DNA of 64,000 bases from an uncultured Dehalococcoidales bacterium (GCA_964586515.1 CAZPGJ010000001.1:158390-222389); one strand, 5' to 3'. Shown: positions 17,196 through 58,100, counted from the stretch's first letter. Notes: generated by a model not told the origin, from the sequence alone. Numbers and translations are program-made.

Positions 17196-17206
17196 CCACC
17201 CACTCC

Positions 17207-17291: not shown

Positions 17292-17310
17292 TTTGGAAGG
17301 AGGTAAGAAT

Positions 17311-24057: not shown

Positions 24058-24570
24058 ATGCAGGTGGGCTCGCTTAGGGAAAACGTTATAATAGCTCTAC
24101 TTATATATAAATTCGGAGAACAAAACGTAGAAACCGAGATTCCCATTACCGAGCCAGAAGTTGATGTCAGATTATTTGGTCAACCCGTGTCTATCAAGAC
24201 AATTACAGGTAAAAGGTTTAGTGGAGTTAAGATTATATGGACAGTTGATGCTCAGAAAGCACGGCAATTTCGACAGAGCTACTATCCTCGATGTGATACT
24301 TTATTCGTGCAGGTTAATTGGGGTGGTAAGGGCGGACTTTACTACTTACCATTAGAGGTTCAAACAAAGGTATTTAATGCAATAGGCAGAGCAGCGTATA
24401 TTAAACTTCCTAAGCCAGGGACAAATCCGAGAGGCGTGGAAATCACTAACGAGGCGTTAGAGGCTGTAGTTACCGATAAAGAGTCCAAAGCTATTGAGAT
24501 ACGTTGGCAAAGAACAGAAATAGACTATGATCCATACCAGAGATGGGTTGACCACTGGAGGGAGGAATGA
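24058..24570 (+). CDS. Hypothetical protein, candidate small type II restriction endonuclease; possibly frame-disrupted at the 5' end
   Basis: 170-aa ORF overlapping the downstream methyltransferase start by 4 nt (ATGA). A further ~40-codon open frame (VNSHLIEILEDEELKARIQRKLPYLFNIAELESSRAGKIG) runs into its start in another frame. No confidently recognisable catalytic motif. Confidence 0.35.
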   Translation: MQVGSLRENVIIALLIYKFGEQNVETEIPITEPEVDVRLFGQPVSIKTITGKRFSGVKIIWTVDAQKARQFRQSYYPRCDTLFVQVNWGGKGGLYYLPLEVQTKVFNAIGRAAYIKLPKPGTNPRGVEITNEALEAVVTDKESKAIEIRWQRTEIDYDPYQRWVDHWREE

Positions 24571-25595: not shown

Positions 25596-26907
25596 GGCAG
25601 CTTCGAGAAAGCTGGCGTTCCTTTCTACGGAAGTTAAGAATAAGGCTTTGGTCAATATCGCTGAGGCTCTTATCGCTAGAAAGGACGAAATCTTAGCTGC
25701 CAACAAGATTGATTACGAGGAGGCGAAGGCTTCAGGGATGAATGAAGCCATGCTGGACAGGCTTATGCTGTCGCCATCTCGCCTGGAAGGCATAGCCCAG
25801 GATACAAGAACAGTGGCGGCGCTGCCTGACCCGGTAGGCGAGGTGTTCGAGATGCGGACCTTGCCCAATGGTTTACAGATAAGCAAGAGGCGAGTCCCCC
25901 TGGGAGTCATTGGTGCGATATATGAGAGCCGCCCCAATGTCACCATAGACATATCGAGCCTGTGCCTTAAATCAGGCAACGCCGTCATCCTCCGTGGTGG
26001 CAAGGAAACCATAAATTCGAACAAGGCCTTAGCCAGGGTAGCTCAAGAAGCCTGTGACCAGGCCGGCGTGCCCCAGGGAGCCATCCAGCTTATCGAGTCC
26101 ACAGAACGGACTTTAGTCAATCACATGCTCAAGATGAAGGGAATAATTGACTTGATGATTCCCCGCGGCGGCGCTGGTTTGATAAAGCTTGTCTCGGAGA
26201 ATGCCGCTATGCCGGTAATTACCGGCGGCATCGGTGTCTGCCATACCTATGTGGACAAGAGTGCCGACGTGAACAAAGCGGTTGCCATCGCCTATAATGC
26301 CAAAGTCCAGCGCCCTACCGTGTGCAATGCTCTCGATTGCATTCTGGTCCATAATCAGATTGCTCAAGCTTACCTGCCGGCTATCGCCAAAGAGTGGGCC
26401 AAGGCCGGCGTGGAAATGCACTGCGACAAGCGAGCCTTGGCTATACTTAAGCAATGTCATTGCGAGCGACCTGCCCGCCTGCTCGCCGTACAACTTCGGC
26501 AGGCGAGCCAAGGCTTGGCAGGCGGGAGCGAAGCAACCTCCCCACCCTTAAAGCTAGTCCCGGCCACAGATGAGGACTGGGGGAAGGAATATCTATCCTT
26601 GAAAGCGGCTATTAAAGTGCTTGACTCTCTGGACGAAGCTCTGGAGCACATTGAGAAATATGGCTCGGGGCACTCCGAAGCTATCGTTACCGAAGACCAT
26701 TCGGCAGCAATGCGCTTCCTCAACGAAGTGGATGCCGCCTGTGTTTATGCCAATGCCAGCACTCGGTTCACCGACGGGGGGCAGTTTGGATTAGGCGCTG
26801 AGATAGGCATAAGCACGCAGAAATTTCACGCCCGCGGTCCCATGGCATTGAAAGAGCTAACCAGTTACAAGTGGATTATCGTGGGCAGCGGGCAAGTTCG
26901 GCCTTAG
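25549..26907 (+). CDS. proA: Gamma-glutamyl phosphate reductase with an in-frame ~85-bp repeat insertion
   Basis: Aldehyde-dehydrogenase-fold ProA motifs throughout. Residues CERPARLLAVQLRQASQGLAGGSEATS are encoded by the repeat at 26456-26540. Confidence 0.85.
   Translation: MKSAVKELEEKGKAAKAASRKLAFLSTEVKNKALVNIAEALIARKDEILAANKIDYEEAKASGMNEAMLDRLMLSPSRLEGIAQDTRTVAALPDPVGEVFEMRTLPNGLQISKRRVPLGVIGAIYESRPNVTIDISSLCLKSGNAVILRGGKETINSNKALARVAQEACDQAGVPQGAIQLIESTERTLVNHMLKMKGIIDLMIPRGGAGLIKLVSENAAMPVITGGIGVCHTYVDKSADVNKAVAIAYNAKVQRPTVCNALDCILVHNQIAQAYLPAIAKEWAKAGVEMHCDKRALAILKQCHCERPARLLAVQLRQASQGLAGGSEATSPPLKLVPATDEDWGKEYLSLKAAIKVLDSLDEALEHIEKYGSGHSEAIVTEDHSAAMRFLNEVDAACVYANASTRFTDGGQFGLGAEIGISTQKFHARGPMALKELTSYKWIIVGSGQVRP
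26456..26540 (+). repeat. Full-length copy of the ~85-bp structured repeat, in frame in proA (a different reading frame from the pyrC/pyrK copies)
   Basis: Two substitutions (GTACAACTTCGG, GCAACCTC) relative to the consensus. Confidence 0.85.
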
Positions 26908-32667: not shown

Positions 32668-34068
32668 TTATTTAGCCCTCATCCTTCTTTCTACTGCCTG
32701 GGCGTGGGCATCGAGCCCTTCAGCTTCAGCTATTACCACAGCAGCCCGACTCAGCTTTCGCATGGCAGCCTTGTCCAGGGCGATGATATTGGTAACCTTG
32801 AGAAAGTCGGCAACGCCCAGAGGAGAACCGAAACGAGCACTGCCTCCGGTGGGCAAGACATGGCTGGGACCGGCAACATAATCACCGAGAACGACAGGCG
32901 AGTTCTCGCCTATGAAAATACAGCCGGCATTGTGAATTTTGGGGACTAAAGACGAAGCGTTAGATGTCATAAGAGAGAGGTGTTCCGGAGCGAAGAGGTT
33001 GACCAATTCCACTGCCTGGGCTATGTCATCTACAAGCACAAGCATCCCCCTATCAATAGCTGCTCTGGCAGTAGAACGCCGCTTTAATTTCCCCAGTTGC
33101 ATCTCGATTGCCTTATTTACCTGGTCAGCCAGGTCAGCCGAAGTGGTGATTAAAATTACTGAAGCCAGGGGGTCATGTTCAGCCTGGGCCAGGAGGTCAG
33201 CGGCACAAAGTGCGGGGTTGGCTTTCTCGTCGGCGACAATTACTACCTCGCTGGGGCCCTCGAGACCATCGAGGTCCACTGTGCCATAAACCATTTTCTT
33301 AACCAGGGTCACGAAGATGTTCCCGGGGCCACAAATCTTATCCACTCTAGGTATTGACTCAGTACCATAAGCTAATGCCGCAATAGCCTGAGCGCCGCCA
33401 ATTTTAAAAATGCGGTTGACCTTAGCAATATCGGCGGCGACCAACGTGGGTGCAGGAATCCACCCACCCTTAGCAGGCGGCGAAACCATAATGATTTCCT
33501 TAACACCGGCCACTTTGGCTGGTATGGCCATCATCAGCACTGTGGATGGATAGGCAGCGGTGCCGCCGGGCACATACAGGCCAACCTTTTGTAAGGGCCG
33601 AACCTGTTGCTTAAGGTGCTTGGCGATAGGAATCAGGCCGGTTTTGTGTCCACAGGCAACATGGAAGTCCCGGATTCTTCTGGCTGCGAACTCGAGGGCC
33701 GAGATAAGTTTCTTGTCTGTTATATCGTAAGCGGCCACAACTTCCTGTCTATTTACTTCCAGGGAATCCAACCGCGCTCCATCCAGTTTTTCGGTGTAAT
33801 CAAAGAGGGCTTTATCGCCTTTATCCCGAACTTCGCCGATAATACGGTCGACCACTTCTTGAACTGAAAGCTCTCCGCCAAAGACTTGCTTTATTTGAGC
33901 TCGTAGTCTCGGTGAGGTGTTGAAAGACTCCCAGAAGTTTTCCCTGGCCAGTAATTGTTTCGCTTTGTTAAATCCTTCGACTCTTTTCACAATAATCCTA
34001 CCCGTGGCGGGGATTGCTTCGTCACTTTGTTCCTCGCAATGACGAGGGGAAAAGGCTCGCAATGACAA
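32668..34068 (-). CDS. hisD: Histidinol dehydrogenase. The annotated N-terminal ~20 codons are encoded by GTCATTGCGAG-family repeat sequence, so the true start may be downstream.
   Basis: HisD motifs throughout (zinc/NAD-binding regions, e.g. AEHDPLASVILITTS and HLSLMT). The first 60 nt (ATGTCATTGCGAGCC...GTCATTGCGAGGAACAAAGTGACGAAGCAATCC) are repeat sequence. Confidence 0.8.
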   Translation of the reverse strand: MSLRAFSPRHCEEQSDEAIPATGRIIVKRVEGFNKAKQLLARENFWESFNTSPRLRAQIKQVFGGELSVQEVVDRIIGEVRDKGDKALFDYTEKLDGARLDSLEVNRQEVVAAYDITDKKLISALEFAARRIRDFHVACGHKTGLIPIAKHLKQQVRPLQKVGLYVPGGTAAYPSTVLMMAIPAKVAGVKEIIMVSPPAKGGWIPAPTLVAADIAKVNRIFKIGGAQAIAALAYGTESIPRVDKICGPGNIFVTLVKKMVYGTVDLDGLEGPSEVVIVADEKANPALCAADLLAQAEHDPLASVILITTSADLADQVNKAIEMQLGKLKRRSTARAAIDRGMLVLVDDIAQAVELVNLFAPEHLSLMTSNASSLVPKIHNAGCIFIGENSPVVLGDYVAGPSHVLPTGGSARFGSPLGVADFLKVTNIIALDKAAMRKLSRAAVVIAEAEGLDAHAQAVERRMRAK

Positions 34069-34081: not shown

Positions 34082-35557
34082 TCATGATAGCCCCGCTCGC
34101 AATTTCTGTGTCAGAAACTTCATTTTCTCTTTTTTATCGGAAGATGCCAGACTATTTTTGCTGGCAATCAGACATGCCGAAGATTGGAAGAGCACATCAA
34201 TAATCTTCAATTTGTGCTGTTTGAGAGTCTTCCCTGTCTGGACATTGTCAATAAGCATGTCGGCATCCTCTGGTAAAAAAGCCTCGCTCGCCCCCCAGGT
34301 TGGGATTAGCTTGTAGGGGTTAATGTGATTGTCCCGAAGATACCTGTCGGCAATATTTATGTACTCCGAAGCTACTTTTAGAGGAGCAAACTTGCCGCTC
34401 TGAACAAGCGACCGCAATTCATCAACGTCGGCCGCAGGCATTTCCTGGCTCACGGCAGCGACAATTTTGACGGTGCCAAAGCCGAGAGCAAACAATTTCT
34501 TCACCGGGCTCGAGGGGAAGCGATAGAGGTGTTCCCGCAGCCAATCCTCACCGGTTATGGCTAAGTCGAAATTGCTATTAGCCACTTGCAGAGGCATATC
34601 CTGGGGCCTGATTACTTTAATGCCCAGCCAGTCTAAATCAGCGGAGGGCCGGCGGCTCACTACTTCTTCAGAATAGCCCTGAAGTGCCAGCCCGGCTTGC
34701 TTCAAAAACTGCGCAGCAGGTGCTTGCTGGTGCCCATCAGGCAAAGCCAGGTTGATTTCTTTGGCTGGCCACGAGGAGCGAGGAATCTTTAGTTTCTTAC
34801 AGATATCAAGCTCATGTTCTATTGGTGTCTGTGGCCCCGCCTGCCAAGCCTCGGCTCGCCTGCCGAAGTCGTACGGCGAGCAGGCGGGCAGGTCAGCGCT
34901 AAGCTGGGAGTCAAAACACACCAATATCTGGCTCAAATCCTTGTTCTCCAGGCTTTCTCGATTGGCTATTACAAAGGCCGTAACGGGGAGTATCTTTTCG
35001 AGGGGAATTAAACCTTGAGCTGCTATATGCGCTCCGCTCTTTCCCCAGAGCACCGCCAAATCGGCATTTTCCGGGGGATAAGCCTCAGTAGCTCCCCACA
35101 CCGGGAAAATCCTGAACCTTTTCATCCTGAGATTTAAGGCAAAAGCCTCAGCCAGATTAGGATACTCACTCACTATACGATAGCTTCTGCGGGCTGATAA
35201 CTCATTGAGACTGGTTATCCCAGCTTGAGCACTGGCAACCACGTGTATACCACCTTCGCCGTAATTTAGACTCGCTATTTTTACCAGGGCCCCAGCGGGA
35301 TATTTCACCAGAAATTCTTCAATCCAATCCAATCCACAAATTCCCAGGTCATAATTCCCGACAGCCACCTGGATGGGAATATCTTTTTCCTGAAGTATTT
35401 TGGCGGAAAGACTGGGAAACCTTGCCGAGCGCAGGCGATATTGCTTTGTTTTATCGCCATAACCATCAAATCCCACGTCTATCTGGGCAAGCAAGCTAGC
35501 TGTCGGCGATAGAAACCTGCCTTTAGGGAGAGCGAGTTTAATAGATTGATATTTCAT
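34082..35557 (-). CDS. hisG: ATP phosphoribosyltransferase, tandemly duplicated HisG-like protein (two HisG-type halves, 491 aa) with an in-frame repeat insertion between the halves
   Basis: The first half (LALPKGRFL...VAVGNYDLGICGLDW) and second half (INLALPDGHQQ...VANSNFDLAITGEDW) both match HisG. Residues ADLPACSPYDFGRRAEAWQAG come from the inverted repeat copy at ~34843-34904. Confidence 0.7.
   Translation of the reverse strand: MKYQSIKLALPKGRFLSPTASLLAQIDVGFDGYGDKTKQYRLRSARFPSLSAKILQEKDIPIQVAVGNYDLGICGLDWIEEFLVKYPAGALVKIASLNYGEGGIHVVASAQAGITSLNELSARRSYRIVSEYPNLAEAFALNLRMKRFRIFPVWGATEAYPPENADLAVLWGKSGAHIAAQGLIPLEKILPVTAFVIANRESLENKDLSQILVCFDSQLSADLPACSPYDFGRRAEAWQAGPQTPIEHELDICKKLKIPRSSWPAKEINLALPDGHQQAPAAQFLKQAGLALQGYSEEVVSRRPSADLDWLGIKVIRPQDMPLQVANSNFDLAITGEDWLREHLYRFPSSPVKKLFALGFGTVKIVAAVSQEMPAADVDELRSLVQSGKFAPLKVASEYINIADRYLRDNHINPYKLIPTWGASEAFLPEDADMLIDNVQTGKTLKQHKLKIIDVLFQSSACLIASKNSLASSDKKEKMKFLTQKLRAGLS
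34843..34904 (-). repeat. Core of the ~85-bp structured repeat in inverted orientation (termini degenerated), in frame in hisG
   Basis: Plus strand reads CCCGCCTGCCAAGCCTCGGCTCGCCTGCCGAAGTCGTACGGCGAGCAGGCGGGCAGGTC, the reverse complement of the repeat core. Confidence 0.75.
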
Positions 35558-40283: not shown

Positions 40284-40455
40284 GTCATTCTGGGAGTCCA
40301 AATGAAGTTGGACGAAGAATCTCTGGACATTGTCGTGAGCTATGCGAAGGGCTCAGAATGACACATCATTCTGTCATTGCGAGGCATGAGACGGTGCCGA
40401 AGCAATCTCAGTGGGGCAGAGGATTGCCACGCACCTTTCAGGTGCTCGCAATGAC
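40284..40455 (+). repeat. Compound cluster of TIR-bounded short elements (GTCATTCTGGG...CTCAGAATGAC; GTCATTGCGAG...GAAGCAATCTCA...CTCGCAATGAC) in the SPFH-mcm spacer
   Basis: Several nested inverted terminal motifs of the GTCATT[GC/CT]GAG family read directly. Confidence 0.6.
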
Positions 40456-46977: not shown

Positions 46978-47751
46978 TTATTTAAGCAACTCCATAGCTA
47001 CCCGGGCAGCCTTTTTACCGGATAAAAGCATGCCACCAAAAATGGCTCCCATCCTCGGGGAACCAAAAACGGCGTTCGCTGTCATACCAGCGACTACCAA
47101 CCCGGGATAGACTTCCCTGGTGTTTTTCAATATTTCTCTTTCCCCTCTTTCAGCCCACATGGACTTCTCTCCCATAACTTCCCCCGTCTTCGTCCTTAGC
47201 TTCGGCCCTATCTTCTTCACCACGATACGGCAGACTTCAGCGTCATGCCCGGTGGCATCTACAGCCACCTTGCACCTCACAGTTAGAGGGTCCACATGCA
47301 GCTTCGACCACGAAACAGCGCTCCAATTCAAAACAAGCCCGCTTATTCTGTCATCTTCCCGAACCATGACATCTTCAACGTTAATCAAATTGAAAATCTT
47401 CGCCCCTGCTTTTATAGCCCGTGAGCAGATAGTCGAAATGGCTTCCAGCGAATCAGCGACATAATACCCTTTTTCATATTCCTTAGCTGAAACTTCAAAT
47501 TCATCCAATACCCGCTTGCCTTTTTCCTGAAGGACGATGCGGTTAAACATCATCCCTCCCCCAGACATGCCGCCGCCCACACGAAGCTGCCTTTCGAATA
47601 CTATCACCTTTATTCCCTCTTTCGCCAGGTAGTATGCAGTAACAAGCCCAGCCGGCCCCGCCCCAGCTACAGCAACATCCACCTCCATCGCCCTCATGAG
47701 GTCCTTCATGTAGCTTTCAACAATGGCACGGGAAATAATAACTTCATCCAT
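46978..47751 (-). CDS. thi4: Thiazole synthase Thi4 (archaeal/eukaryotic type; FAD-binding)
   Basis: ORF 46978..47790. Dinucleotide-binding GAGPAGL and a Thi4 family pattern (VDATGHDAEV...PGLVVAGM). Start could be 47790 or the internal Met at 47751. Confidence 0.75.
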   Translation of the reverse strand: MDEVIISRAIVESYMKDLMRAMEVDVAVAGAGPAGLVTAYYLAKEGIKVIVFERQLRVGGGMSGGGMMFNRIVLQEKGKRVLDEFEVSAKEYEKGYYVADSLEAISTICSRAIKAGAKIFNLINVEDVMVREDDRISGLVLNWSAVSWSKLHVDPLTVRCKVAVDATGHDAEVCRIVVKKIGPKLRTKTGEVMGEKSMWAERGEREILKNTREVYPGLVVAGMTANAVFGSPRMGAIFGGMLLSGKKAARVAMELLK

Positions 47752-47890
47752 AATCCTAAATCCTAAACAAATTCCAAATCCTAATTCCAAAATTCAAAAT
47801 CTTCTTGTTTCGGGTATTTGAGTTTTGATGAGAGGAATTAAATTTTTCCTTTCTTTTGTTTAGTATTTCGTATTTAGTGCTTAGAATTTT
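47752..47890 (+). repeat. AT-rich intergenic repeat (taatcctaaatcctaaacaaattccaaatcctaattccaaaattcaaaat...)
   Basis: The aaatcctaaacaaattcc block is identical to that at 45100. Confidence 0.5.
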
Positions 47891-47994
47891 CTCCCTTAGT
47901 TGACCTCACTTTAGCTACTGAAGCGGCGGTTTGGAAGAGGTGCTAGCCAGTATACCTCTATTGGCCAGCAATGTCTAGTCATTTGGGGTTTTTG

Positions 47995-48116
47995 TCAATG
48001 CGAGCCCTTTCTCTTTCGTCATTGCGGGCCCCGACTTATCGGGGTGTGGCAATCTCTGGGATTGCGGAGCCTGTTCCGAAGCATAAGCGAGGAAGCTCGT
48101 CAGCCTCGCAATGACA
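47995..48116 (+). repeat. Compound TIR element: GTCAATGCGAG...GTCATTGCGGG...GGCAATCTC...CTCGCAATGAC
   Basis: Terminal inverted motifs of the GTCATTGCGAG family with an internal degenerate copy. Confidence 0.6.
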
Positions 48117-48207
48117 AGAGGCAGGTGGTTAAAAAATAGCGGTGCCCCAAGCTAACTCAGGAACACCCCGGGCCTATCAATAGGCTACGGCCATTGCCCT
48201 GGGTGCT

Positions 48208-49788
48208 TTAAGGCTTGTGGTGGTTGATTACGTTCTGCGGTATTACGAGGGGCTTCGTGCCGTTGTACGCAAAGTTCCAGCAGCCGTACTGGTCAGTCAA
48301 CGCCTTGTCGTATTCGTCTCCGAAATACATCGGCCAGACGCCGACTTTCTTCCACTGACCAGCCGTTGCATCCCACTGCCACTGCGCGCCAATGCCAGTC
48401 AAGCGGCCAGGACCATAAACCAGGTCATGAGTGGTGTGTGGTGGCATTGTCCAGTCCTTCGCGTCATACGTATAAGTAGTATTATAACTACCAAGGTCGT
48501 ACAGTGAGCCTACTTGAGCCTCTGTCAGTGCCGGTTTCCCGGCAGCCGTAGTTCCCGGCCTGGGATAATAGGTGGTCAAGCCAGTCGTGGTTACCTGAGC
48601 GTTTGCCGGGCCTTCCAGCCACTTAATAATGTCATCAGCCCGTGCATATGCAGTTCCGTTAACCGCGTTGTACCATGCCACTGCTTCGATGGCCGCTTTC
48701 AGACCAAAAAGCGCATCATAGGTAGCCGCGGTATCGAGTGGGTACTCTCCTCCAGAAGCGGTCATGAACGCAGAAAGGAAAGCTGCTGTCTTCGAGGTCT
48801 GGTTTAAGCCTTCCGCCCAGGTATCCAGTACAACCTCATAAGCACAAGCAGGGCCACCAGGGGGGGCTGCGGTAAGGTTGCCGGCACCCCAAGGGCTCTT
48901 AAGCTGGGCCATTACGTTAAAGCCTACCGACATAGCATTCGGTACATAAGATGCACGCAGTTTATCATAGAGAACGCCAGCATTCGCGGAGAATACAGGG
49001 ATGATAAACTCGGGATCTAAGCCTGCTATCGAGGTCAGCACACTCTGCATTTCCGCCGTGTTTCCCGTTGCATCCACCCAATATGGGTCGTGGACAAGAG
49101 TCACGTTTATACCCCCTAGCAGTCCCTCAATATCTACTACTTGCTCATAGGCCCAGGGCAAATTGTCAGCGACTATGGTGGCATTCAACGTACAATTAGC
49201 CGCTACTCCCATTTTCTCCCTGAGCTTTATTGCGACCGCTCCCAGTATCCTCACAAGGCTCTGGCTTGAAAAATACTCGTTGTACGGCGTGCCCTTGAAC
49301 CAGAACCGGTAGCCCGGGTAATCGTCGACTACGCTGTGCTGGAGCGCCTCGGCGGCAACACCACAGTCGATGAAAATCACCCCCTTCTCCATAGCCACAT
49401 TGCGGTAGACCTCAACGGCTTTTGTCTGTAAACCCCCGAGGATGAAGTCCACGTCATCGTCGTCTATCGCTGTCGTAAGAGCCGATACGCCAGTGAGACC
49501 AGCAGGGTCCACGGTCTCTTCACCGGTCTCTATGGGAACCAACTCCAAGATATAGGACACGCCGCCTATGTCTACCCCGCCATTGCGGTTGATTGCATCC
49601 TGTGCCAGCGTGGCACCTGTCCATTGCATCGCGCCAGCTGTGCAGTTCTGGTCGCCAGCTATACCGATATCAATTTTCCCACCTCGGAAGGCATAGAGTA
49701 CTGGCTCGAGTTTCTCTGCACTACAGCCCGGGAGTGCCAACCCTATCACCAAAAGACTGGCCATAATCAGGAAAACAATTTTTTTCAC
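48208..49788 (-). CDS. Solute-binding lipoprotein of an ABC transporter (type I periplasmic binding fold, LivJ-like); signal peptide with lipobox LPGCS
   Basis: N-terminal MKKIVFLIMASLLVIGLALPGCS, a large PBP1-like body, and no adjacent permease or ATPase genes. Confidence 0.6.
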   Translation of the reverse strand: MKKIVFLIMASLLVIGLALPGCSAEKLEPVLYAFRGGKIDIGIAGDQNCTAGAMQWTGATLAQDAINRNGGVDIGGVSYILELVPIETGEETVDPAGLTGVSALTTAIDDDDVDFILGGLQTKAVEVYRNVAMEKGVIFIDCGVAAEALQHSVVDDYPGYRFWFKGTPYNEYFSSQSLVRILGAVAIKLREKMGVAANCTLNATIVADNLPWAYEQVVDIEGLLGGINVTLVHDPYWVDATGNTAEMQSVLTSIAGLDPEFIIPVFSANAGVLYDKLRASYVPNAMSVGFNVMAQLKSPWGAGNLTAAPPGGPACAYEVVLDTWAEGLNQTSKTAAFLSAFMTASGGEYPLDTAATYDALFGLKAAIEAVAWYNAVNGTAYARADDIIKWLEGPANAQVTTTGLTTYYPRPGTTAAGKPALTEAQVGSLYDLGSYNTTYTYDAKDWTMPPHTTHDLVYGPGRLTGIGAQWQWDATAGQWKKVGVWPMYFGDEYDKALTDQYGCWNFAYNGTKPLVIPQNVINHHKP

Positions 49789-49989
49789 TGCACATCAATT
49801 TCCTTTTTAGCTTGTAGTTGCTTGATTCATTAAGCTAACCACTGGTGCTGGAAGAAACTGGTCAACAACCAGTTACTTCCAGCAACTTAATCCTTATACA
49901 CTATATCACAAAACTATCTCCTTCTTTACCTCTGGTCTCCAGATTCTTGTAGTTGCCTGATTTACCAGCCAGGCCCCGCCCGATTTTTT

Positions 49990-50066
49990 GTCATTGCGAG
50001 CGAAGCGTGGCACTTTCATTAACCCTTCCATGAGATTGCTTCGGCTGACTTCGTCAGCCTCGCAAC
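49990..50066 (+). repeat. TIR element copy (GTCATTGCGAGCGAAGCGTGGCA...GATTGCTTCGGCTGACTTCGTCAGCCTCGCAA)
   Basis: Carries the family termini plus an internal palindrome GGCTGAC-ttc-GTCAGCC. Confidence 0.65.
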
Positions 50067-50193
50067 AACAGAAGAGGTTATCAATGCAAAAACCAATTAA
50101 ATCATAACATTTAAATATTAAGATTCTATTAAATTTAGGGGGATGTGACATCTTTTTATAGCGGCTGGAGAGGAAAGAGAATCTCCACTCCCC

Positions 50194-50346
50194 CGTCATT
50201 GCGGGCCCTTTGCCTTTTGTCATTCTGAGCCGAAGGCGAAGAATCTCACTTCTTCTCAGGCATGTCCTGAGCGAAGTCGAAGGAGTAAACTCCGCGTGGC
50301 AATCCTCCGGAATTGCTTCGGCTGACTTCGTCAGCCCCGCAATGAC
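50194..50346 (+). repeat. Nested compound TIR element (outer GTCATTGCGGG...CCCGCAATGAC; inner GTCATTCTGAGCCGAAGGCGAAGAATCTCA and ...GGCAATCC...GATTGCTTCGGCTGACTTCGTCAGCC)
   Basis: Read directly. It is the second unit of a tandem pair with 49990-50066. Confidence 0.65.
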
Positions 50347-50379
50347 AGAAGGGGGGTTGTCAATGCAAAATGCAAAACT

Positions 50380-50470
50380 AAAGGTGCAAAACGACGGAGC
50401 AAAGGTTAAATGCTTTGCGTTTTGAGTTGTCATTTTGATTTTTGACCTCTAACTTTTGAATTGTAACATC
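50380..50470 (+). repeat. AT-rich repeat copy (caaaatgcaaaactaaaggtgcaaaacgacggagcaaaggt...gtcattttgatttttgacctctaacttttgaatt), homologous to 45120-45220
   Basis: About 80 bp alignable with the copy upstream of the NIL-ferredoxin gene. Confidence 0.6.
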
Positions 50471-50614
50471 TAAATGCTAAAATTCCGTTAAGATTTATGG
50501 AGATGTGGCAATTTTATAGTGGCTGAGGTAGTAGAGGGGGGAATACATCCTCGCCTGTCCTCTCCCTTTAAAAGAGAGGGATTCCCATGGAGATTTTTGG
50601 TCATACTGTAATAG

Positions 50615-51979
50615 TTATCTCTTATACTTCCATCTTGTTCCTTGAGGGGTATCTTCAAGGGTTACTCCTAAATCGGCCAATCCACTTCTAATTTTATCGG
50701 CTAGCTGCCACTGCTGGTTTTGACGCAAATCATCCCTGGTGGATGCCAGGAGACTGATAAATGCTTCAGCGTCGGGTGTGGGCTGTGTCTTTTCCTTTAA
50801 AGTAAGACCTAGGATGCCTGCTAGCTTCAGTAGGGTATACTGCGCTTCAGTTATATTTGCACCCTGTTCAGCGCCCCGGCTTATTTCCCTCGTCAATTCG
50901 AAGAGCACTGCTATTGCCTGCGCAGTATTGAAGTCATCGTCCATGGCTTCGACAAATTTCTGCTCAAAAGGTTCCGTGTTGAGTATAGCAACTCTCTCGT
51001 CTGCATTAGCTCGATTGGTCAATGCCCAACGTAGTTTTTCTGCGCCCCTCTCGTTTGCTTCCAGAGCCTCTTCACTATAGGTAAGTGGACTTCTATAATT
51101 CGAGCTAAGGATAAAAAGGCGAATAGCATCAGGGCTAAAGCGCTCTAATATGTCTCTGACATTTACTAAATTACCAGTGGACTTACTCATTTTTTGCTTA
51201 TCCTGCTGCATCAACCCACTATGTAGCCAATATCGAACAAAAGGAGTCTCCTGGGTAAAGCTCTCTGATTGAGCTATTTCATTCTCGTGATGAGGGAAGA
51301 TGAGGTCTTGCCCGCCACCATGGATATCAATAGTGGCGCCGAGGTATTTTAATGCCATGGCACTGCACTCTATGTGCCACCCTGGTCTGCCTTTGCCCCA
51401 AGGGCTATCCCAGAAGGGTTCCCCAGGCTTTGACGCCTTCCATAAGGCGAAATCTAGCGGGTATTCCTTGTTTGCTTCACAATAAGTAGCCTTCGGAATC
51501 ATCTCTGCCAGGTTTCGGTGACTCAGTTTGCCATAGTCGGGAAAATTCCTGACGCGGAAATAAACACTTCCCTCAAACTCGTAAGCGTAACCTTTAGCAA
51601 GCAGACTTTGTATAATTTCAATAACTTTTGGTATTTCTTCGGTTGCCCTGGGATAGACATCCGCTCGCTCTACGTTTAATGCATCCATATTAGCAAAGTA
51701 CTGGTCAATGTATTTATTGGCCAGTTCTGCTGGCAGCATCCCCAACTGGTTGGCATGCTCTATAATCTTATTGTCTATGTCGGTAAAGTTTTGTACGTGT
51801 TTAACTTTATAGCCTTTGAATCCTAGATAGCGTTTGATTACATCAAAGATTATATAAGTCATGGCGTGCCCGATATGGCTTTCGTCGTAAGCGGTAATCC
51901 CACAGACATACATGGTTACCACTTCGCTGCGGGGATGAAAATCTTCCTTTTGTCCGGTTAAAGTATTAAATACTTTCAT
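50615..51979 (-). CDS. cysS: Cysteine--tRNA ligase
   Basis: ORF 50615..52015. Class-I HIGH (HIGHAMT) and KMSKS motifs and a zinc-binding Cys set. The start is probably the internal Met (MKVFNTL...). Confidence 0.9.
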   Translation of the reverse strand: MKVFNTLTGQKEDFHPRSEVVTMYVCGITAYDESHIGHAMTYIIFDVIKRYLGFKGYKVKHVQNFTDIDNKIIEHANQLGMLPAELANKYIDQYFANMDALNVERADVYPRATEEIPKVIEIIQSLLAKGYAYEFEGSVYFRVRNFPDYGKLSHRNLAEMIPKATYCEANKEYPLDFALWKASKPGEPFWDSPWGKGRPGWHIECSAMALKYLGATIDIHGGGQDLIFPHHENEIAQSESFTQETPFVRYWLHSGLMQQDKQKMSKSTGNLVNVRDILERFSPDAIRLFILSSNYRSPLTYSEEALEANERGAEKLRWALTNRANADERVAILNTEPFEQKFVEAMDDDFNTAQAIAVLFELTREISRGAEQGANITEAQYTLLKLAGILGLTLKEKTQPTPDAEAFISLLASTRDDLRQNQQWQLADKIRSGLADLGVTLEDTPQGTRWKYKR

Positions 51980-52060
51980 CTCTTTTCCCCAGAGGGTGAC
52001 TGACAACCGTCTCACTCTTATTCAGCGAATCACATCTCAGGTCGGCTAAATTTTCAAAAC

Positions 52061-52089
52061 TTGACAAGCTTATCACCCCCTGATATTGT
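52061..52089 (+). promoter_or_regulatory. Putative promoter for the rrf2-cysK... sulfur cluster (-35 TTGACA 52061-52066, 17-nt spacer, extended -10 TGaTATTGT 52081-52089)
   Basis: Consensus -35 and a TG-extended -10 about 40 nt upstream of the rrf2 start. Confidence 0.4.
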
Positions 52090-52131
52090 ATACTAAGTTG
52101 ATTAATTTGGTCAACAATTGAGGAGGACTGA

Positions 52132-52575
52132 ATGAAGCTTTCTACTAAAGGCAGATATGGAGTGAGGGCACTTTTGGATTTGGCTCTTCATCAAGGTGAG
52201 GGGTTGGTTCTATTAAAGGATATCGCCCGGAGGCAAGAGGTTTCACTGCCGTATCTAGAGCATCTGATCACTCCTCTTATAGCTGCCGGCCTGGTGAAGA
52301 GCACACGGGGGGCTCGGGGTGGTGTCTTGCTACTTAAGCCGCCCTCGGAGATCAAGCTTAGTGAAGTAGTTCAACTTCTTGAGGGCTCCATTGCCCCGGT
52401 GGACTGTGTGAATGATCCTAAGGTATGCCACCGTTCTGCTTCTTGTGTTACCCGGGATATCTGGAGTGAGATGAAGAGGGCAATGAGCCAGGTTTTAGAT
52501 TCTAAGACCTTACAGGACCTGGTTGAGCGGCAAAGACAGAAGGGACAAACTGAAACAGGGATGTATTACATTTGA
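52132..52575 (+). CDS. Rrf2-family transcriptional regulator (IscR/CymR-like) with three clustered Cys (Fe-S ligands)
   Basis: wHTH N-terminus (MKLSTKGRYGVRALLDLA) and CVNDPKVCHRSASC. Confidence 0.8.
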   Translation: MKLSTKGRYGVRALLDLALHQGEGLVLLKDIARRQEVSLPYLEHLITPLIAAGLVKSTRGARGGVLLLKPPSEIKLSEVVQLLEGSIAPVDCVNDPKVCHRSASCVTRDIWSEMKRAMSQVLDSKTLQDLVERQRQKGQTETGMYYI

Positions 52576-52657
52576 GAGGCCTTTACCCGGGAAATATGTT
52601 TAAGAACGGGACAGGCATTTTGCTGATTATTGCGCTTATGATCAGGAGGAAAGCAGA

Positions 52658-53671
52658 ATGACAAAGATAAGTCAAAATGTGGAGAGGCTTCAATACAAGA
52701 CAGTTGAGATACCGAAACTAACTAGAGGAATAGCTAAGGACTCTAGCGAGTTAATCGGGAATACACCTTTGGTCAGGCTGAACCGGATAACCAAAGGGGT
52801 AAAGGCAGAGGTAGTAGCTAAGCTTGAATCCTTTAATCCCCTGGGAAGTGTAAAGGACAGAATCGGGGTATCAATGATTGTTGATGCTGAAGAGAAAGGG
52901 CTCATCAACGAAGATACGGTGATCGTCGAGCCCACCAGCGGCAACACTGGAATCGCCCTGGCTTTCGTCTGCGCCGCCAGAGGATACCGGCTCATCCTCA
53001 CCATGCCTGATACTATGTCCTTAGAGCGGAGGCAGCTTCTGTCTATTTTTGGGGCTGAGCTGGTCTTGACCCTTGGAGTGGAGGGGATGCCAGGGGCGGT
53101 GAGGAAGGCGGAACAATTGGTGGCAGAGAATACCAATTACTTTATGCCCCAACAGTTTAATAATCCGGCAAATCCGGAGATACATCGACTGACTACCGCA
53201 GAAGAAATCTGGAGGGATACCAACGGTGAAGTAGATATTCTGGTCTCTGGTGTGGGAACGGGAGGGACAATCACAGGATTAGCTGAGGTTATAAAGAAAA
53301 GGAAGCCTGAATTTGAGGCTATTGCTGTTGAGCCGACTGATTCCCCAGTTCTCTCCGGGGGCAAGCCTGGTTCTCATAAGATTCAGGGTATTGGCGCGGG
53401 ATTTATACCCAAAATTCTCAAGCTAGACTTGGTTGACGAGATTATCAGAGTTACCAATGAAGATGCCGGAATAATGGCCAGGAGATTAGCTAAGGAAGAA
53501 GGGATATTGGCTGGCATATCTTCAGGTGCAGCAACCTGGGCAGCATTGGAGGTGGCCAAAAGAACAGGAAATAAAGGCAAACTTATCGTGGTGGTTCTAC
53601 CTGACACGGGAGAGCGCTACCTGTCTACCTGGCTTTTCCAGGAACTTTACCAGGCCTCATCAGGTCCCTAA
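52658..53671 (+). CDS. cysK: Cysteine synthase (O-acetylserine sulfhydrylase) family PLP enzyme
   Basis: PLP-lysine context SVKDR, a glycine loop (GTGGT) and a ~30-aa N-terminal extension. Confidence 0.8.
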
Positions 53672-53744
53672 AAAGCGGAATGTATTACACACTGAGCTGG
53701 AGGAATTTCCCTCCAGCCCAGCCAAAAAACGAAAGGAGGAGTAA

Positions 53745-54548
53745 ATGGAGTTTTCAGAAATATCCGAAAAACAGGTTACGAAGGCGATCATATCAGAGTT
53801 CAGCAGGGAATTTGAGGATTACATCGAAACCGATGTAATCGTAGTAGGTGCTGGACCTAGCGGGCTTATTGCCTCAAAGGAACTCGCAGAGAAGGGCGTA
53901 AAAACGCTCCTTATCGAGAGCAACAACTATCTCGGTGGAGGCTTTTGGATCGGCGGCTATCTAATGAACAAGATAACACTGAGGGCTCCGGCTCAGGGGA
54001 TTCTGAATGAAATTGGAGTCCCATATAAAGAGGCGGAAGAGGGATTGTATGTGGCAAATGGACCACACGCATGCTCTAAATTAATTGCCGCAGCTTGTGA
54101 CGCCGGCGTTAAGGTATTAAGCATGACCAAGTTCGATGATGTGATGATAAGGGAGAAGCGCGTCTGTGGGGTAGTCATCAACTGGACACCTGTATCGGCA
54201 CTTCCAAGGGCGATCACCTGCGTCGACCCAATTGGTATGGAATCAAAACTCGTCATCGATGCCACGGGACATGATGCTGTGGTTGTTCATTCACTCGCGA
54301 AGCGAGGTCTGGTGAATATCAAAGGATTCAGTGGCATGTGGGTTGCAAAATCAGAGGACGTGGTCGTTGAGTATACAAAAGAGGTATACCCGGGCCTGAT
54401 TGTAGCAGGAATGGCAGTTGCCACCACATTTGGTCTTCCTAGGATGGGTCCAACTTTTGGCGCCATGCTCTTCTCAGGAAGGAGGGCTGCAAAAGCTGCC
54501 TTGGAGCTTTTATCAAAGGGACAGTCTTTAGTCGGCATTACCTCTTGA
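53745..54548 (+). CDS. Thi4-like protein (second paralog of thiazole synthase / ribose-1,5-bisphosphate-isomerase family)
   Basis: GAGPSGL dinucleotide motif and [10 protein letters not shown]...PGLIVAGM, parallel to the thi4 at 46978. Confidence 0.65.
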
Positions 54549-54599
54549 GAAGTATATCCCTACAAGAGCTGGTTAACAGGTAACAGGGAAAAACGCTTA

Positions 54600-55313
54600 A
54601 TGTTTAAGACGTTAAGAGAAGATATTCAAACGGTTTTTGCCAAAGACCCCGCGGCAAGGAGCACGTTGGAGGTCATTTTCTGCTATCCTGGCCTCCACGC
54701 CCTCTGGTTTCACCGTCTCGCCCATTTACTCTGGCGACATAAGCTCCGATTCCTAGCTCGTCTCCTGTCCCACCTCAATCGCTTCCTAACCGGCATCGAA
54801 ATTCACCCTGGAGCCAGGATCGGCAGGAGGTTCTTTATCGACCATGGGGCAGGGGTGGTCATTGGAGAGACGGCTGAGATTGGGGATGATGTCTTGCTGT
54901 ATCAGGGAGCTGTCCTGGGGGGAACAACTTTGAAGAAAGGGAAACGCCACCCTACCATTGGCAACAATGTGGTGATGGGAACCGGTGCGATAGCCCTAGG
55001 TGCTATCACGATAGGAGACAGGGCTCGGATTGGTGCTGGCTCAGTGGTAATAAAGTCAGTGCCGCCTGGGGCTACGGTGGTGGGAATTCCAGGAAGAATA
55101 GCAGAGGACCACCGAAAACCGTCCATGGATTTGGAACATGGTAACTTACCTGACCCGGTGGCGGAAGCTGTCAGGTTCGTCTTAAGAGAGCAGGACAAAC
55201 TAGAGGAACGTTTGAGAACTTTGGAGAGTGCCAGTGGAATAGCATCTCCCAAAGACGAATTACCGGAGAAGATAATGATAGAAGCGGTATTCAGCCAAGG
55301 AGGGGGAATATGA
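54600..55313 (+). CDS. cysE: Serine O-acetyltransferase (left-handed beta-helix hexapeptide acyltransferase)
   Basis: SAT N-terminal helical domain plus hexapeptide repeats ([15 protein letters not shown]...[31 protein letters not shown]). Confidence 0.8.
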
Positions 55314-56452
55314 GATTTGAAACGATAGCCATTCATGCCGGGGATAGGCCAGATGCAACAACCGGCGCTATTTCGGTACCCATCTACCAGACATCGACAT
55401 TCGTGTTTGAGGATGTGGGCAAGACAAGGGGGTGGGATTACTCCCGCACGGCAAATCCAACGAGGAAGGTTCTGGAAGATACTATCGCTCAGCTTGAGGG
55501 AGGGAAAGCTGGGTTTGCCTTCGCCACTGGGATGGCGGCTGAAACGACAGTTATGCACCTTTTGAAAACAGGCGACCACGTGATCTCGGGAGACGATGTC
55601 TACGGAGGAACCTATAGATTATTTCAGGATGTGATGCGTGCCCTTGGTCTGGAGTTCACTTTCCTGAAAATGGACAATGGAGAAAGGATCGAGGGGGCAA
55701 TAAAGCCCAATACCAGGATGTTGTGGTTAGAGACTCCCTCTAATCCACTACTCAACATCGTTGACATTGAGATGGTGGTTGATATTGCTAAGAAACACAA
55801 GTTGCTGACAGTAGCAGATAATACCTTTGCCACCCCATATTTCTTAAGACCGATTGAATACGGAGTTGACCTTGTTGTCCACTCTACCACCAAGTATCTC
55901 AACGGGCACTCTGATGTTGTAGGGGGCGCTGTGGTGACCACCACTGATGAACTAAGCCAGAAGGTGCAATTTCTACTCAACGCCATGGGAACCTGTGCCG
56001 CCCCCTTCGACTGCTGGCTGGTGCTCCGGGGGATGGAGACTCTCCCTGTGAGGATGAAGCAACATGAGGAGAATGCCATTGCCGTGGCAAATTATCTCAA
56101 GGAGCATCCCAAGGTAAAGGGGGTGCTCTATCCTGGGCTCGAGTCCCATAAGGGACACGAAATCGCCAAGAGACAGATGAAAGGATTCGGTGGGGTAGTG
56201 TCCTTTGAACTGGGAGGTGGTATTGAGGGTGTAAATACCTTTCTAAGAAAGCTCAAGGTCTTTCCTCTGGCGGAATCGCTGGGTGGTGTTGCTTCTCTTG
56301 CCGAGCATCCGGCTACCATGAGTCATGCCTCGATGCCAAAGGATTATAGAGAGAAGGTGGGGATTAGCGATGAATTGATCAGGTTATCGGTTGGTTTGGA
56401 GAATATTGACGATTTGACTGAGGATTTAGAGCAGGCGCTCGAGCGCCTGTGA
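55310..56452 (+). CDS. Cys/Met-metabolism PLP-dependent enzyme (cystathionine gamma-synthase / gamma-lyase / O-acetylhomoserine sulfhydrylase family)
   Basis: Family pattern with PLP-lysine context [11 protein letters not shown]. Confidence 0.75.
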
Positions 56453-56552
56453 GGGAGGATCTGATGAAACTGTACCAGATAGTTGTGAAAGACGTCACAC
56501 GAAGGAAAGGCATTGATCTCGTAGCTATGTATCAAGATACCCTTGAGCCTGG

Positions 56553-57791
56553 GTGGCCTTAAAGGAGGAAGATTTGTCCTATGCTATAGCCTTGCGCTGC
56601 CGGAAGTGTGGGCGAGAGTATCCGTTGGAGCCTCTCAATCTATGTGACTTTTGCTTCAGTCCGTTAGAGGTAAACTACGACTATAAGTCTATAGCTAAAG
56701 CGGTAAGTCGGGAAAAGATTCTCGAGGGGCTGCCAAGCATGTGGCGCTACAGAGACTTGCTGCCTGTAGATGGCGATGTAGTGGATATTGGCACGGGATT
56801 CACTCCTCTTGTTAAGGCTGATAACCTGGGGCAGGAACTGGGGTTGGAGAAGCTTTATATCAAAAATGACTGCCTTAACCCAACGTACTCCTTCAAGGAT
56901 CGGGTGGTCTCGGTAGCTATCACCAAGGCACGAGAATTTGGATTTGATACCGTGGCTTGTGCCTCAACAGGCAATCTGGCTGCTAGCGTGGCGGCTCATG
57001 CTGCCAAAGCAAATATAAAGTCCTATGTTTTCGTTCCCTCTGATGTGGAACCAGGTAAGCTGACAGGAATAGCAATCTATAACCCAGTTCTGGTGACAAT
57101 TAAGGGAAACTACGACGATGTCAACCGCCTCTGTAGCCAGATAGCGCAGAGATATAACTGGGGGTTCATCAACATTAATCTCCGACCCTACTATGCTGAG
57201 GGGAGCAAGACCCTGGGTTATGAAGTAGCTGAACAACTGGGGTGGCATGCCCCTGATTGTGTAGTGGCCCCCGCTGCCTCGGGGCTCCTCTTTACCAGGA
57301 TATGGAAAGGCCTGGACGAGCTTTCTATGCTGGGTTTAATTCAACCGATCAATACTCACATGTATCTTACCCAGGCTGCGGGTTGTTCTCCCATTGTCAA
57401 TGCTTTTGAGGCAGGTATTCACCATGTGCACCCAGTGAAACCAAATACCATCGCCAAGTCTATAGCTATTGGGAACCCGGCTGATGGCTATTATGCGTTG
57501 AGGGTTGCCCGGCAGTCAGGGGGCAGTGCCTGTGCTGTCACCGATGAAGAGGTGGTTGAGGGGATGAAGCTGCTGGCCGAGACTGAAGGCATTTTTGCCG
57601 AGACAGCTGGAGGTGTGGTAATAGCGGGGTTGCGGAAGCTAGTGACCTCGGGGATAATTAAGAGGAATGAGCTTACGGTGGTTTTCATTACCGGGGCAGG
57701 ACTGAAAACCCAGGAAGTGATAGCTGAGGGGGTTCATCCCCTCGTAATCCAGCCCACCTTGGAATCCTTCGAGGAAATTTTTGGTAAGTGA
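56553..57791 (+). CDS. thrC: Threonine-synthase-like PLP enzyme with N-terminal zinc-ribbon (CxxC...CxxC)
   Basis: CRKCGREY...CDFC followed by the fold-type-II PLP motif SFKDR. Specificity (Thr synthase versus a sulfhydrylase-type relative) cannot be resolved from sequence alone. Confidence 0.6.
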   Translation: MALKEEDLSYAIALRCRKCGREYPLEPLNLCDFCFSPLEVNYDYKSIAKAVSREKILEGLPSMWRYRDLLPVDGDVVDIGTGFTPLVKADNLGQELGLEKLYIKNDCLNPTYSFKDRVVSVAITKAREFGFDTVACASTGNLAASVAAHAAKANIKSYVFVPSDVEPGKLTGIAIYNPVLVTIKGNYDDVNRLCSQIAQRYNWGFININLRPYYAEGSKTLGYEVAEQLGWHAPDCVVAPAASGLLFTRIWKGLDELSMLGLIQPINTHMYLTQAAGCSPIVNAFEAGIHHVHPVKPNTIAKSIAIGNPADGYYALRVARQSGGSACAVTDEEVVEGMKLLAETEGIFAETAGGVVIAGLRKLVTSGIIKRNELTVVFITGAGLKTQEVIAEGVHPLVIQPTLESFEEIFGK

Positions 57792-57857
57792 GCTTGAGTC
57801 TTTAATGTTCCACTCGTGTTATAATTTTAACTTTAGAAAAAATATCAGGAGGACAAG

Positions 57858-58100
57858 ATGGTCAAGCGAGGAGTAAAGTTCACCTTTCCACCGGAATTGA
57901 TTAAGGAGCCCATCATTTACAATCTCGGTCAACAGTTTAAGGTAGTGACCAATATCCGACGCGCTGATGTAAATGGAGACAAGGGCTGGGTAGTTCTTGA
58001 ATTGGAGGGGGAAGGAGAAGATATCGAGCGTGGAATTGCTTGGGTGACTGGCAAAGGGGTAAGGGTTGATCCCGTTGTCGGAGATATTGTAGAGGGTTAG
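57858..58100 (+). CDS. Stand-alone NIL-domain protein (80 aa)
   Basis: …QFKVVTNIRRADVNGDKGWVVLELEGEGEDIERGIAWV… parallels the N-terminal domain of the NIL-ferredoxin at 45225. Confidence 0.5.
   Translation: MVKRGVKFTFPPELIKEPIIYNLGQQFKVVTNIRRADVNGDKGWVVLELEGEGEDIERGIAWVTGKGVRVDPVVGDIVEG

Follow-up and report, generated by a model that had tools for sequence, protein, structure and literature searches.

A gene-free repeat block beside cysS in an uncultured Dehalococcoidales bacterium: a mosaic of AT-rich blocks and probable CGTC-tagged REP-type palindromes

The 64,000-nucleotide stretch of DNA analysed here (GCA_964586515.1, CAZPGJ010000001.1:158390-222389; hereafter the window) comes from an uncultured Dehalococcoidales bacterium and contains a block at 49789-50614, between cysS and a solitary binding-protein gene, that holds many short repeats. 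A first-pass annotation took the block for a tandem duplication of nested elements resembling miniature inverted-repeat transposable elements (MITEs). What is the repeated element at this locus: a small transposon with two inverted ends, a functional RNA, or a repeat of another kind? The block is a mosaic cluster of units of the repetitive extragenic palindrome (REP) type together with two diverged copies of a lineage-specific AT-rich block. With a probability of about 0.8, the units are REP-type palindromes of the CGTC-tagged superfamily, here in uncultured Dehalococcoidia (Chloroflexota), and form groups like bacterial interspersed mosaic elements (BIMEs); the unit CGTCATTGCGAGCGNAGCGAAGCAATCCA was placed in the superfamily by its described traits and not by the CGTC-1 to CGTC-4 consensus sequences.

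The GTCATT-type terminus on which the earlier description was built does recur. GTCATTSYGRG occurs 19 times in the window, compared with a mean of 0.20 and a maximum of 2 in dinucleotide-preserving shuffles, and the copies named previously are present at 34012-34066, 40284-40455, 47994-48115, 49990-50069 and 50195-50346. Side-by-side comparison of all copies gives a repeat module with one direction: a head GTCATTGCGAG, a variable insert and a tail CGAAGCAATC(TC). The unit begins with an unpaired (C/T)GTC tag and a 5-bp basal stem, ATTGC/GCAAT or the compensated variant ATTCT/AGAAT, followed by a 2x3 G/A-rich internal loop. Above this loop is an apical hairpin whose sequence and length are free and which is often closed by a GNA triloop, as in d(GCGNAGC) mini-hairpins. 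It ends in an unpaired tail of 2-3 nt (CTC, CCA or CCC). The apex ranges from 6 to 63 nt, the smallest being a 2-bp stem with a GNA triloop. Every intact unit adopts this identical architecture with both DNA and RNA fold parameters, and no fold pairs the GTC tag. The commonest unit is 26 nt long, GTCATTGCGAG-CGNAGC-GAAGCAATC, where N is A in 30 cases, C in 12, T in 10 and G in 8; its loop matches the GCGNAGC mini-hairpin motif (reviewed in PMC13037366), and loops of this type are also present in enterobacterial REPs (Table 1 of PMC2817692). For apical inserts of 13-20 nt, the fold is better than that of the shuffled insert in 73% of distinct units. GNA accounts for 13 of the 27 triloops in longer apices and TTC for only one, which makes the unit structure strand-asymmetric.

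The pairing of head with tail is seen in the covariation of the basal stem. Head and tail combinations were scanned over the whole IMG/VR collection. An ATTGC head with a GCAAT tail was found in at least 120 contigs, and so was an ATTCT head with an AGAAT tail. The mixed combinations are rare: ATTCT with GCAAT in 1 contig and ATTGC with AGAAT in 6, and five of these six are a compound of a solo ATTGC head and a complete ATTCT unit, as at 50195-50247 in the window. Head and tail are thus coupled as a base-paired stem requires. Isolated single units also occur, for example at 17006-17033 and 11224-11257 and as the 85-nt copies that start at 9964, 16497, 17207 and 26456.

We tallied 220 units in the window and the fetched loci. 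GTC is preceded by T in 131 of them, by C in 82, by A in 4 and by G in 3; the tail is CTC in 92, CCA in 56 and CCC in 29, and an unpaired tail is always present. Unit pairs within 120 bp are mostly head-to-head (HH) with the tags outside (29 pairs), and there are 7 tandem, or head-to-tail (HT), pairs and 2 tail-to-tail (TT) pairs with the tags inside. All dimers in the region first noted (47995-50546) are HH. The two partners have unrelated apices, as in 48018-48056 (+) with 48060-48115 (-), 49990-50017 (+) with 50032-50069 (-), and 40373-40409 (+) with 40418-40455 (-). The 11-bp terminal inverted repeats (TIRs) of the earlier reading are in reality the tag plus stem of two inverted units, an arrangement represented by the 29 HH pairs. 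The units and other features (DNA folding energies, dG, in kcal/mol unless stated) are as follows.

16497-16581, plus strand: 85-nt unit with a long apex, in frame within pyrK.
34010-34066, minus strand: solo head and 34-nt unit, between hisG and hisD.
40284-40362 and 40373-40455: cluster of two HH dimers, of ATTCT and ATTGC type, respectively, upstream of a methylmalonyl-CoA mutase gene.
47994-48017, plus strand: solo head GTCAATGCGAGCCCTTTCTCTTTC, a tag and 5' half with no matching tail; its compound with a full unit recurs in unrelated IMG/VR contigs.
48018-48056, plus strand: complete unit GTC-ATTGC-GG-[CCCCGA CTTA TCGGGG]-TGTG-GCAAT-CTC, DNA fold ...(((((..(((((((....)))))))...)))))... 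(dG -10.0, z = -3.9).
48060-48115, minus strand: inverted partner unit of 56 nt with a longer apex, forming an HH dimer with 48018-48056.
49846-49884, minus strand: leader hairpin with 17-nt arms, 94% complementary (RNA dG -25.7, z = -5.9).
49900-49908, minus strand: extended -10-like box TGATATAGT (TGCTATAGT in L003), conserved in the alignment.
49906-50433, minus strand: spurious 175-aa open reading frame (ORF) reading through the repeats, with no Pfam match.
49973-50406: 434-bp indel, present in the window and absent from L002 and 14 other related loci (blastn, alignment and spacer table).
49990-50017, plus strand: degenerate short unit GTCATTGCGAGCGAAGCGTGGCACTTTC (compare the intact short unit at 17006-17033).
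50032-50069, minus strand: unit GTTGTTGCGAG-GCTGAC GAA GTCAGC-CGAAGCAATCTC with a mutated tag (dG -9.4, z = -3.4).
50076-50096, plus strand: junction block GGTTATCAATGCAAAAACCAA, always between an AT-rich X block and a dimer; it resembles a decayed head.
50097-50194, minus strand: AT-rich block X, subtype b, with a sigma-70-like ATGTCA-17-TAGAAT on the minus strand.
50195-50218, plus strand: solo head GTCATTGCGGGCCCTTTGCCTTTT; 5 unrelated IMG/VR contigs have it joined to the next unit.
50219-50247, plus strand: complete unit GTCATTCTGAG...GAAGAATCTC with an ATTCT/AGAAT stem and a GCC-GAA-GGC apex; it folds.
50262-50307, plus strand: degenerate unit with a decayed head ATGTCCTGAG and an intact tail GTGGCAATCCTC, as read from the sequence.
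50309-50346, minus strand: unit GTCATTGCGGG-GCTGAC GAA GTCAGC-CGAAGCAATTCC, a paralogue of 50032-50069 (91%; dG -10.0, z = -3.5).
50355-50375, plus strand: second copy of the junction block, GGTTGTCAATGCAAAATGCAA, of the same repeat family as 50076-50096.
50376-50441, minus strand: AT-rich imperfect hairpin, a member of a second, AT-rich repeat type; the cysS-proximal half is present in all related loci.
50442-50548, minus strand: AT-rich block X, subtype a, the orthologue of the one X block in L002 and in 19 metagenome loci.
50556-50592, minus strand: hairpin GGGAATCCCTCTC-TTTTAAA-GGGAGAGGA, a third repeat type, just past the cysS stop and conserved in relatives.

The segment 50195-50346, formerly described as outer and inner nested TIRs, is a row of a solo head, a complete unit, a degenerate unit and an inverted unit, and its supposed inner TIR pair GTCATTCTGAG...GAAGAATCTC is one stem-loop. 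The units at 49990-50017 and 50032-50069 form an HH dimer, and the orthologous dimer is present in L321 and L003, two of the related loci. In the AT-rich hairpin at 50376-50441, the distal half belongs to the insert and repeats the flank in inverted orientation. The fold of the third-type hairpin at 50556-50592 is not better than that of its shuffles (z = -0.2); the same repeat type is translated as ..NPSPLKGEG.. in the PyrK orthologues P0068 and P0074. The second, AT-rich intergenic repeat type (TTTGTCATTTTGATTTTTGAC..., with TGCAAAA words) is found at 16267, 32620, 45183, 45682 and 50428.

The compound element at 47994-48115 is an old insertion. The orthologous site carries a compound element in L001, L002 and L003 too, with diverged interiors, and a conserved TAGACA-17-TATACT box for thi4 follows immediately downstream of it. 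An AT-rich insert of about 142 bp at 47752-47893, between the conserved thi4 leader and its ATG, is found only in the window and is absent from L001, L002 and L003.

Two composite units with shared blocks are present in the block, as had been noticed; they are real but old. Their lengths are about 220 and 375 bp, and they are 69% identical over aligned columns. The 43-nt stretch of unit and junction block (50035-50077 versus 50312-50354) reaches 91%, and the AT-rich blocks are roughly 70-75% identical. The term internal tandem duplication overstates this, given their different lengths, the 69% identity and the lack of a long-period array in Tandem Repeats Finder (TRF); a recent tandem duplication was rejected on the latter two grounds. 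The two X blocks differ in subtype, and each is closer to a block in another genome than to the other. Matches to X(a) are found in L002, L001 and most metagenome loci, and the closest relatives of X(b) are one block in L320 and two in L003 (11450- and 13426-13651).

Comparison with relatives, which the first-pass annotation had proposed as a check, reveals presence/absence polymorphism of units at three places: the cysS spacer, PyrK site 1 and the pyrK/yjbQ junction. For the spacer, syntenic loci came from a cysS-based scan with one genome per species, and a metagenome scan with the X core added 20 contigs, all of them the locus that runs from the X block to the binding-protein gene. In L002 (89% CysS identity) the 434 bp at 49973-50406 are absent and the flanks are collinear; L003 (79% CysS identity) has one AT-rich block and one decayed dimer. 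When the spacer is measured from the X block to the conserved anchor CAGGCAACTACAAG in 21 loci, the alleles form a graded set.

89-90 bp, 15 of the 21 loci: no units.
150 bp, L326: remnant of one unit.
175 bp, L003: one decayed dimer.
231 bp, L333: AT hairpin and dimer.
241 bp, L321: AT hairpin, junction block and one HH dimer.
308 bp, L320: second X block and a unit.
518 bp, window: largest allele.

The cluster at 49973-50406 is missing from most related loci, which indicates that it is dispensable; as judged from these alleles, it is polymorphic and codes for nothing. The earlier statement that 49789-50614 contains no credible ORF therefore stands, and the ORF across it, made of repeats, without a Pfam match and mostly absent in relatives, is not a gene.

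The cassette from the X block to the binding-protein gene follows cysS in some populations and directly an IscS-like gene in others (L319, L320, L322, L327 and L334 versus L321, L325 and L332). These two contexts imply that a 7.7-kb block of cysS, Rrf2 and cysteine-biosynthesis genes (window 50407-58089) is present or absent at the junction. In L001 the binding-protein gene is missing here and the thi4 side is inverted. The breakpoints of these rearrangements fall at the X block or at REP clusters.

Units also lie inside genes. Near-identical copies of the 85-nt unit of pyrK are found at 9964-10048 (pyrC), 17207-17291 (pyrK/yjbQ junction) and 26456-26540 (aldehyde dehydrogenase), and short units at 17006-17033 (pyrK) and 11224-11257 (3' end of pyrC). 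In-frame units are present in pyrC, in pyrK (two), in carA (11777-11890) and in the aldehyde dehydrogenase gene. Alignment to solved structures places inserts of about 25 and about 7 residues in PyrK, and an insert of about 28 residues and a C-terminal extension in dihydroorotase, each of them coinciding with a unit. Reading of the sequence gives five of the six frames of a unit as open, and different genes translate the 85-nt unit in different frames, two in all. Units in long ORFs number 74 sense and 52 antisense, about the 3:2 ratio expected from open frames (three versus two), which argues against a function on the transcript strand; a transcript-strand bias of intragenic units was rejected on the same counts.

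Site 1 of PyrK gives a second graded series. Among orthologues of 71-82% identity, it is empty (HQVSSREIALLFKV), minimal (VIASEAKQSQ), medium (VIASDLPAKAWQAGAKQSQ) or, with a further +10 aa, long (the window); the series was confirmed at the DNA level in four orthologues. That elements insert into each other holds to the extent that units pile up next to one another and sometimes within; the support is limited to this one PyrK site with its minimal, medium and long apices. At the pyrK/yjbQ junction, the 85-nt unit is bracketed by an 18-nt direct duplication (17179-17196 and 17298-17315; AGGAGATAAAGATATGAC and AGGAGGTAAGAATATGAC) that recreates the overlapping pyrK stop and the Shine-Dalgarno sequence and ATG of yjbQ. 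L339 and L342 have no unit and one copy of the 18-nt sequence, and L340 has three copies and two units.

These comparisons bear on the alternative that the repeats are true MITEs, deletion derivatives of an insertion sequence (IS) with 11-15-bp TIRs that are mobilised by a parent transposase and insert into one another. Inverted termini (TTTT)GTCATTGCGAG ... CTCGCAATGAC(AAAA) do bound elements of 80-150 bp, presence/absence polymorphism is seen, and the copy at the pyrK/yjbQ junction has its 18-nt direct target duplication. However, single units with one such terminus are common and conserved, there is no element of fixed structure, and the interiors of paired halves are unrelated. Covariation links the head to a tail at a distance of 15-70 nt, not to the remote partner terminus. 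The 18-nt duplication is not a target-site duplication (TSD) of the transposase type; it restores the stop/start overlap and may be an artefact of selection. No consistent duplication appears in the three comparisons of filled and empty sites, among them the cysS/binding-protein spacer and PyrK site 1. No transposase Pfam domain was found in the 50 window ORFs, no recurrent (REPtron-like) ORF is bracketed by inverted units in 3.4 Mb of fetched DNA, and no autonomous IS with the same termini was seen in the window or the fetched sequences. We consider this alternative improbable. What survives of the MITE-like description is a family of small, non-coding repeats of mobile type; the unit is a single directional stem-loop, with neither a linked transposase nor a consistent TSD.

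A second alternative is that the cluster is transcribed from the X blocks as a small RNA or as a 5'- or 3'-untranslated region (UTR) that regulates cysS or the binding-protein gene. The -35/-10-like boxes of the X blocks point to the units and to the binding-protein gene, the units fold stably as RNA, and REPs elsewhere act as 3'-UTR stabilisers or terminators (PMC3733652). Against this, the units have no Rfam 15 match at the gathering score in a search of the whole window, and at E <= 10 the stretch 47700-50700 gave only chance-level matches. Units occur in both orientations and in coding sequence, with no strand bias beyond open frames, and no T-run follows the hairpins on either strand. Intrinsic terminators were accordingly rejected for the GC-rich hairpins, and weak sites are found elsewhere only. 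Fifteen of 21 related loci lack the cluster, whereas the promoter box, the leader hairpin and the gene stay conserved. We regard a role of the cluster as a functional RNA or a regulator as improbable.

The cluster lies between the cysS stop and a conserved promoter-like box and leader hairpin of the binding-protein gene. Both gene calls agree on the flanks that had been given for the block: cysS is at 50615-51979 (minus strand; its protein is 91% identical to that of a Dehalococcoidia metagenome-assembled genome, MAG), and the solitary binding-protein gene, with a weak Peripla_BP_6 match in Pfam, is at 48208-49788 (minus strand). Downstream of the insertion point everything is conserved: the TGATATAGT box, the hairpin and the gene start. 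The strong hairpin already noticed at about 49845-49880 was recovered at 49846-49884. It is kept in L002, L003 and about 20 metagenome loci, and the changes in L002 give G-U pairs. Owing to its conservation downstream of the insertion point, we assign it to the 5' leader of the binding-protein mRNA, outside the repeat family. The box at 49900-49908 lies downstream of the repeat cluster and is probably the promoter of the binding-protein gene. Hairpin and box together may form a 5' structure, regulatory or stabilising, that has no relation to the repeats.

An assembly artefact, in which the doubled composite unit would be a mis-join or mis-collapse of dispersed repeats in the MAG, is very unlikely. 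This is an assembly from an uncultured organism with short and numerous repeats, and the window allele is the longest and most complex of the 21 loci. However, independent assemblies share its sub-architectures: L321 has X(a), the AT hairpin, the junction block and a dimer, and L320 carries X(a) followed by X(b), the junction block and a unit. The flanks are collinear with L002 and L003, and composite units that are 69% alike are too diverged for assembler confusion. That the ORF at 49906-50433 is a real gene or a pseudogene remnant can practically be dismissed: it does have an ATG start and 175 uninterrupted codons, but it has no Pfam match, it is made of units whose frames are open by construction, and most relatives lack 434 of its 528 bp.

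How, then, would the CGTC-tagged REP-type units have come to be where they are? Gain, loss and size change of units between relatives are observed, and so is tolerance inside genes. We suggest that the units are non-autonomous and largely selfish or neutral DNA, which may act as single-strand hairpins on the tagged strand. They could spread, expand and contract through an unlinked trans-acting single-strand-DNA enzyme, through template switching and gene conversion between copies, or through both; cut-and-paste transposition of TIR elements would not be the mechanism. With five of six frames open, copies may survive within genes. Beside cysS the cluster would merely pad the 3' region of that gene upstream of the next promoter, and local effects, such as a 3'-end hairpin on the cysS transcript or insulation between the two genes, would be incidental. 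Our confidence in any specific mobilisation mechanism is much lower than that in the identification of the units.

A bolder and unlikely version is that the units, far from being passive relics, would be landing pads for an unrecognised kind of DNA-making that is independent of a transposase, in which hairpins would grow from within, as a hairpin in a hairpin at the apex, and copies would arise by template switching at single-stranded hairpins. It could take place in essential genes too, and in phyla from Alphaproteobacteria to Chloroflexota as well as in phage-like contigs. Hints in this direction are the graded PyrK series, the same long apex at four sites in this genome, the inverted copy of target flank at the edge of the 434-bp insert, and the 18-nt duplication at pyrK/yjbQ. 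If it were true, how CGTC REPs and Rickettsia palindromic elements (RPEs) spread without a dedicated enzyme, a question of long standing, could be studied in this lineage as a tractable natural series.

Several further features of the window were recorded. The only Rfam match at the gathering score is a DUF3800-VII RNA (RF02967; 23670-23756, minus strand; 48.5 versus 36.2 bits), which adjoins a 110-aa ORF without a Pfam match (23221-23553) and is unrelated to the units. At 24058-25595 (plus strand), the gene for a ThaI-family restriction endonuclease and, after it, that for an N4/N6 DNA methylase are probably a type II restriction-modification pair. Two ORFs have unusual lengths. The aspartate carbamoyltransferase ORF (8432-9835, plus strand) encodes 467 aa, with a PyrI_C domain fused at the end and unmatched residues 146-251 between the catalytic-chain domains. 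The HisG ORF (34082-35557, minus strand) encodes 491 aa, with the HisG domain only in residues 317-487.

For annotation, the repeat units account for the gene-free block, for the false 175-aa ORF, and for inserts of 7-30 residues in PyrC, PyrK, CarA and other enzymes of this Dehalococcoidia lineage. For host range, they would add Chloroflexota, along with many environmental and viral-bin contigs, to the carriers of CGTC-tagged REPs. The graded alleles, from empty through remnant and single dimer to double composite in the cysS spacer and from empty through minimal and medium to long at one codon position of PyrK, could help show how elements without a transposase arise.

It remains to compare the units with known systems. 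The closest are the CGTC-tagged REPs, which include dRS3 of Neisseria and RPE-4 and RPE-6 of Rickettsia (Di Nocera, De Gregorio & Rocco 2013, BMC Genomics 14:522, PMC3733652). These are defined by an unpaired CGTC end, often TGTC or CCTC, an 8-9-bp stem that opens with A-T pairs at positions 1 and 2, a 4-5-nt loop, and a 3-nt unpaired tail with the consensus CCA; loop length varies in some CGTC-1 and CGTC-3 hosts (PMC3733652). Their dimers are mostly HH, with TT rare and HT negligible, and they form occasional clusters that reiterate units with flanking DNA, have in-frame intragenic copies and lack a transposase (PMC3733652). The window units likewise have a (C/T)GTC tag, a stem starting with A-T and a short unpaired tail, whose sequence agrees in part (CCA in 56 of the 220 units). 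HH dimers prevail, heterodimers are common, and there are in-frame copies and clusters with flanking DNA, with no associated transposase in the window or the fetched DNA. The two composite units with X and junction block fit the cluster pattern in which dimers are reiterated with their flank (PMC3733652).

Copies in cultured bacteria point the same way as these traits. CGTC REPs have been described in Novosphingobium (PMC3733652), and the 30-mer CGTCATTGCGAGCGAAGCGAAGCAATCCAG is 100% identical at 40 or more places in one Novosphingobium resinovorum replicon (pSA1, L344) and forms an HH dimer between genes in N. aromaticivorans pNL2 (L343, region 154827-154963). In cultured sphingomonads the minimal unit has a CGTC tag and a CCAG tail, and its tags-outside dimers lie between genes of aromatic-degradation clusters. 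The exact minimal unit is also present on cyanobacterial plasmids. Methylosinus trichosporium carries a 32-nt form at 100% identity; Methylocystis, Halomonas, Calothrix and Aulosira have close copies. Searching the literature with the unit sequence GTCATTGCGAG, its complement and RFARND-type peptides returned PCR primers only.

Several observations weigh against the assignment. The window units have a 5-bp basal stem, an internal loop and an apex of 6-63 nt, whereas the published repeats have an uninterrupted stem of 8-9 bp and a 4-5-nt loop. Nearest-neighbour energies, which do not capture how unusually stable GCGNAGC is, give short units weak folds, no better than shuffles (17006-17033, z = 0.15). 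Apical stems contain 4 G-T and 4 A-C mismatches, an RNA signal neither way, and a wobble-pair asymmetry as such a signal was rejected on this count. No mobilising enzyme was found, with the 64-kb window as the part of this genome that was covered. The X blocks are a separate, lineage-specific repeat, and their promoter-like boxes are only consensus matches. The tail is mostly CTC in this genome; Chloroflexota lie outside the five phyla given for CGTC repeats, and the density of window units inside housekeeping genes is high.

The RPEs of Rickettsia are about 100-150 bp long and largely restricted to that genus. The window units resemble them as palindromic repeats lying in frame in conserved protein genes, apparently tolerated, with orthologues that have or lack the insert; they differ in their length of 26-85 nt and in the presence of the same sequence type across phyla. 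Bacterial MITEs such as Correia/NEMIS, RUP and Nezha are also small, non-coding, repeated and strain-polymorphic, and a pair of units mimics a TIR element. The window units, in contrast, have no fixed element length, consistent TSD or parent IS, and the conserved terminus pairs with the nearby tail of its own unit. The classical REPs, with their BIMEs, their doublets (REPINs) and the REP-associated tyrosine transposase RAYT (TnpA-REP), share with the window units the short imperfect palindromes, a conserved unpaired end, inverted doublets, mosaic clusters with conserved linkers, and positions between unidirectional genes. No gene for RAYT, a Y1 HUH transposase, was seen in the window or the fetched loci. 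The window tag is (C/T)GTC and not GTAG, many copies are intragenic, and doublet partners are not near-identical, so that no single long REPIN hairpin would form. We file the repeats of this locus as a new host-lineage member, possibly a structural variant, of a described repeat superfamily and as no new kind of system.

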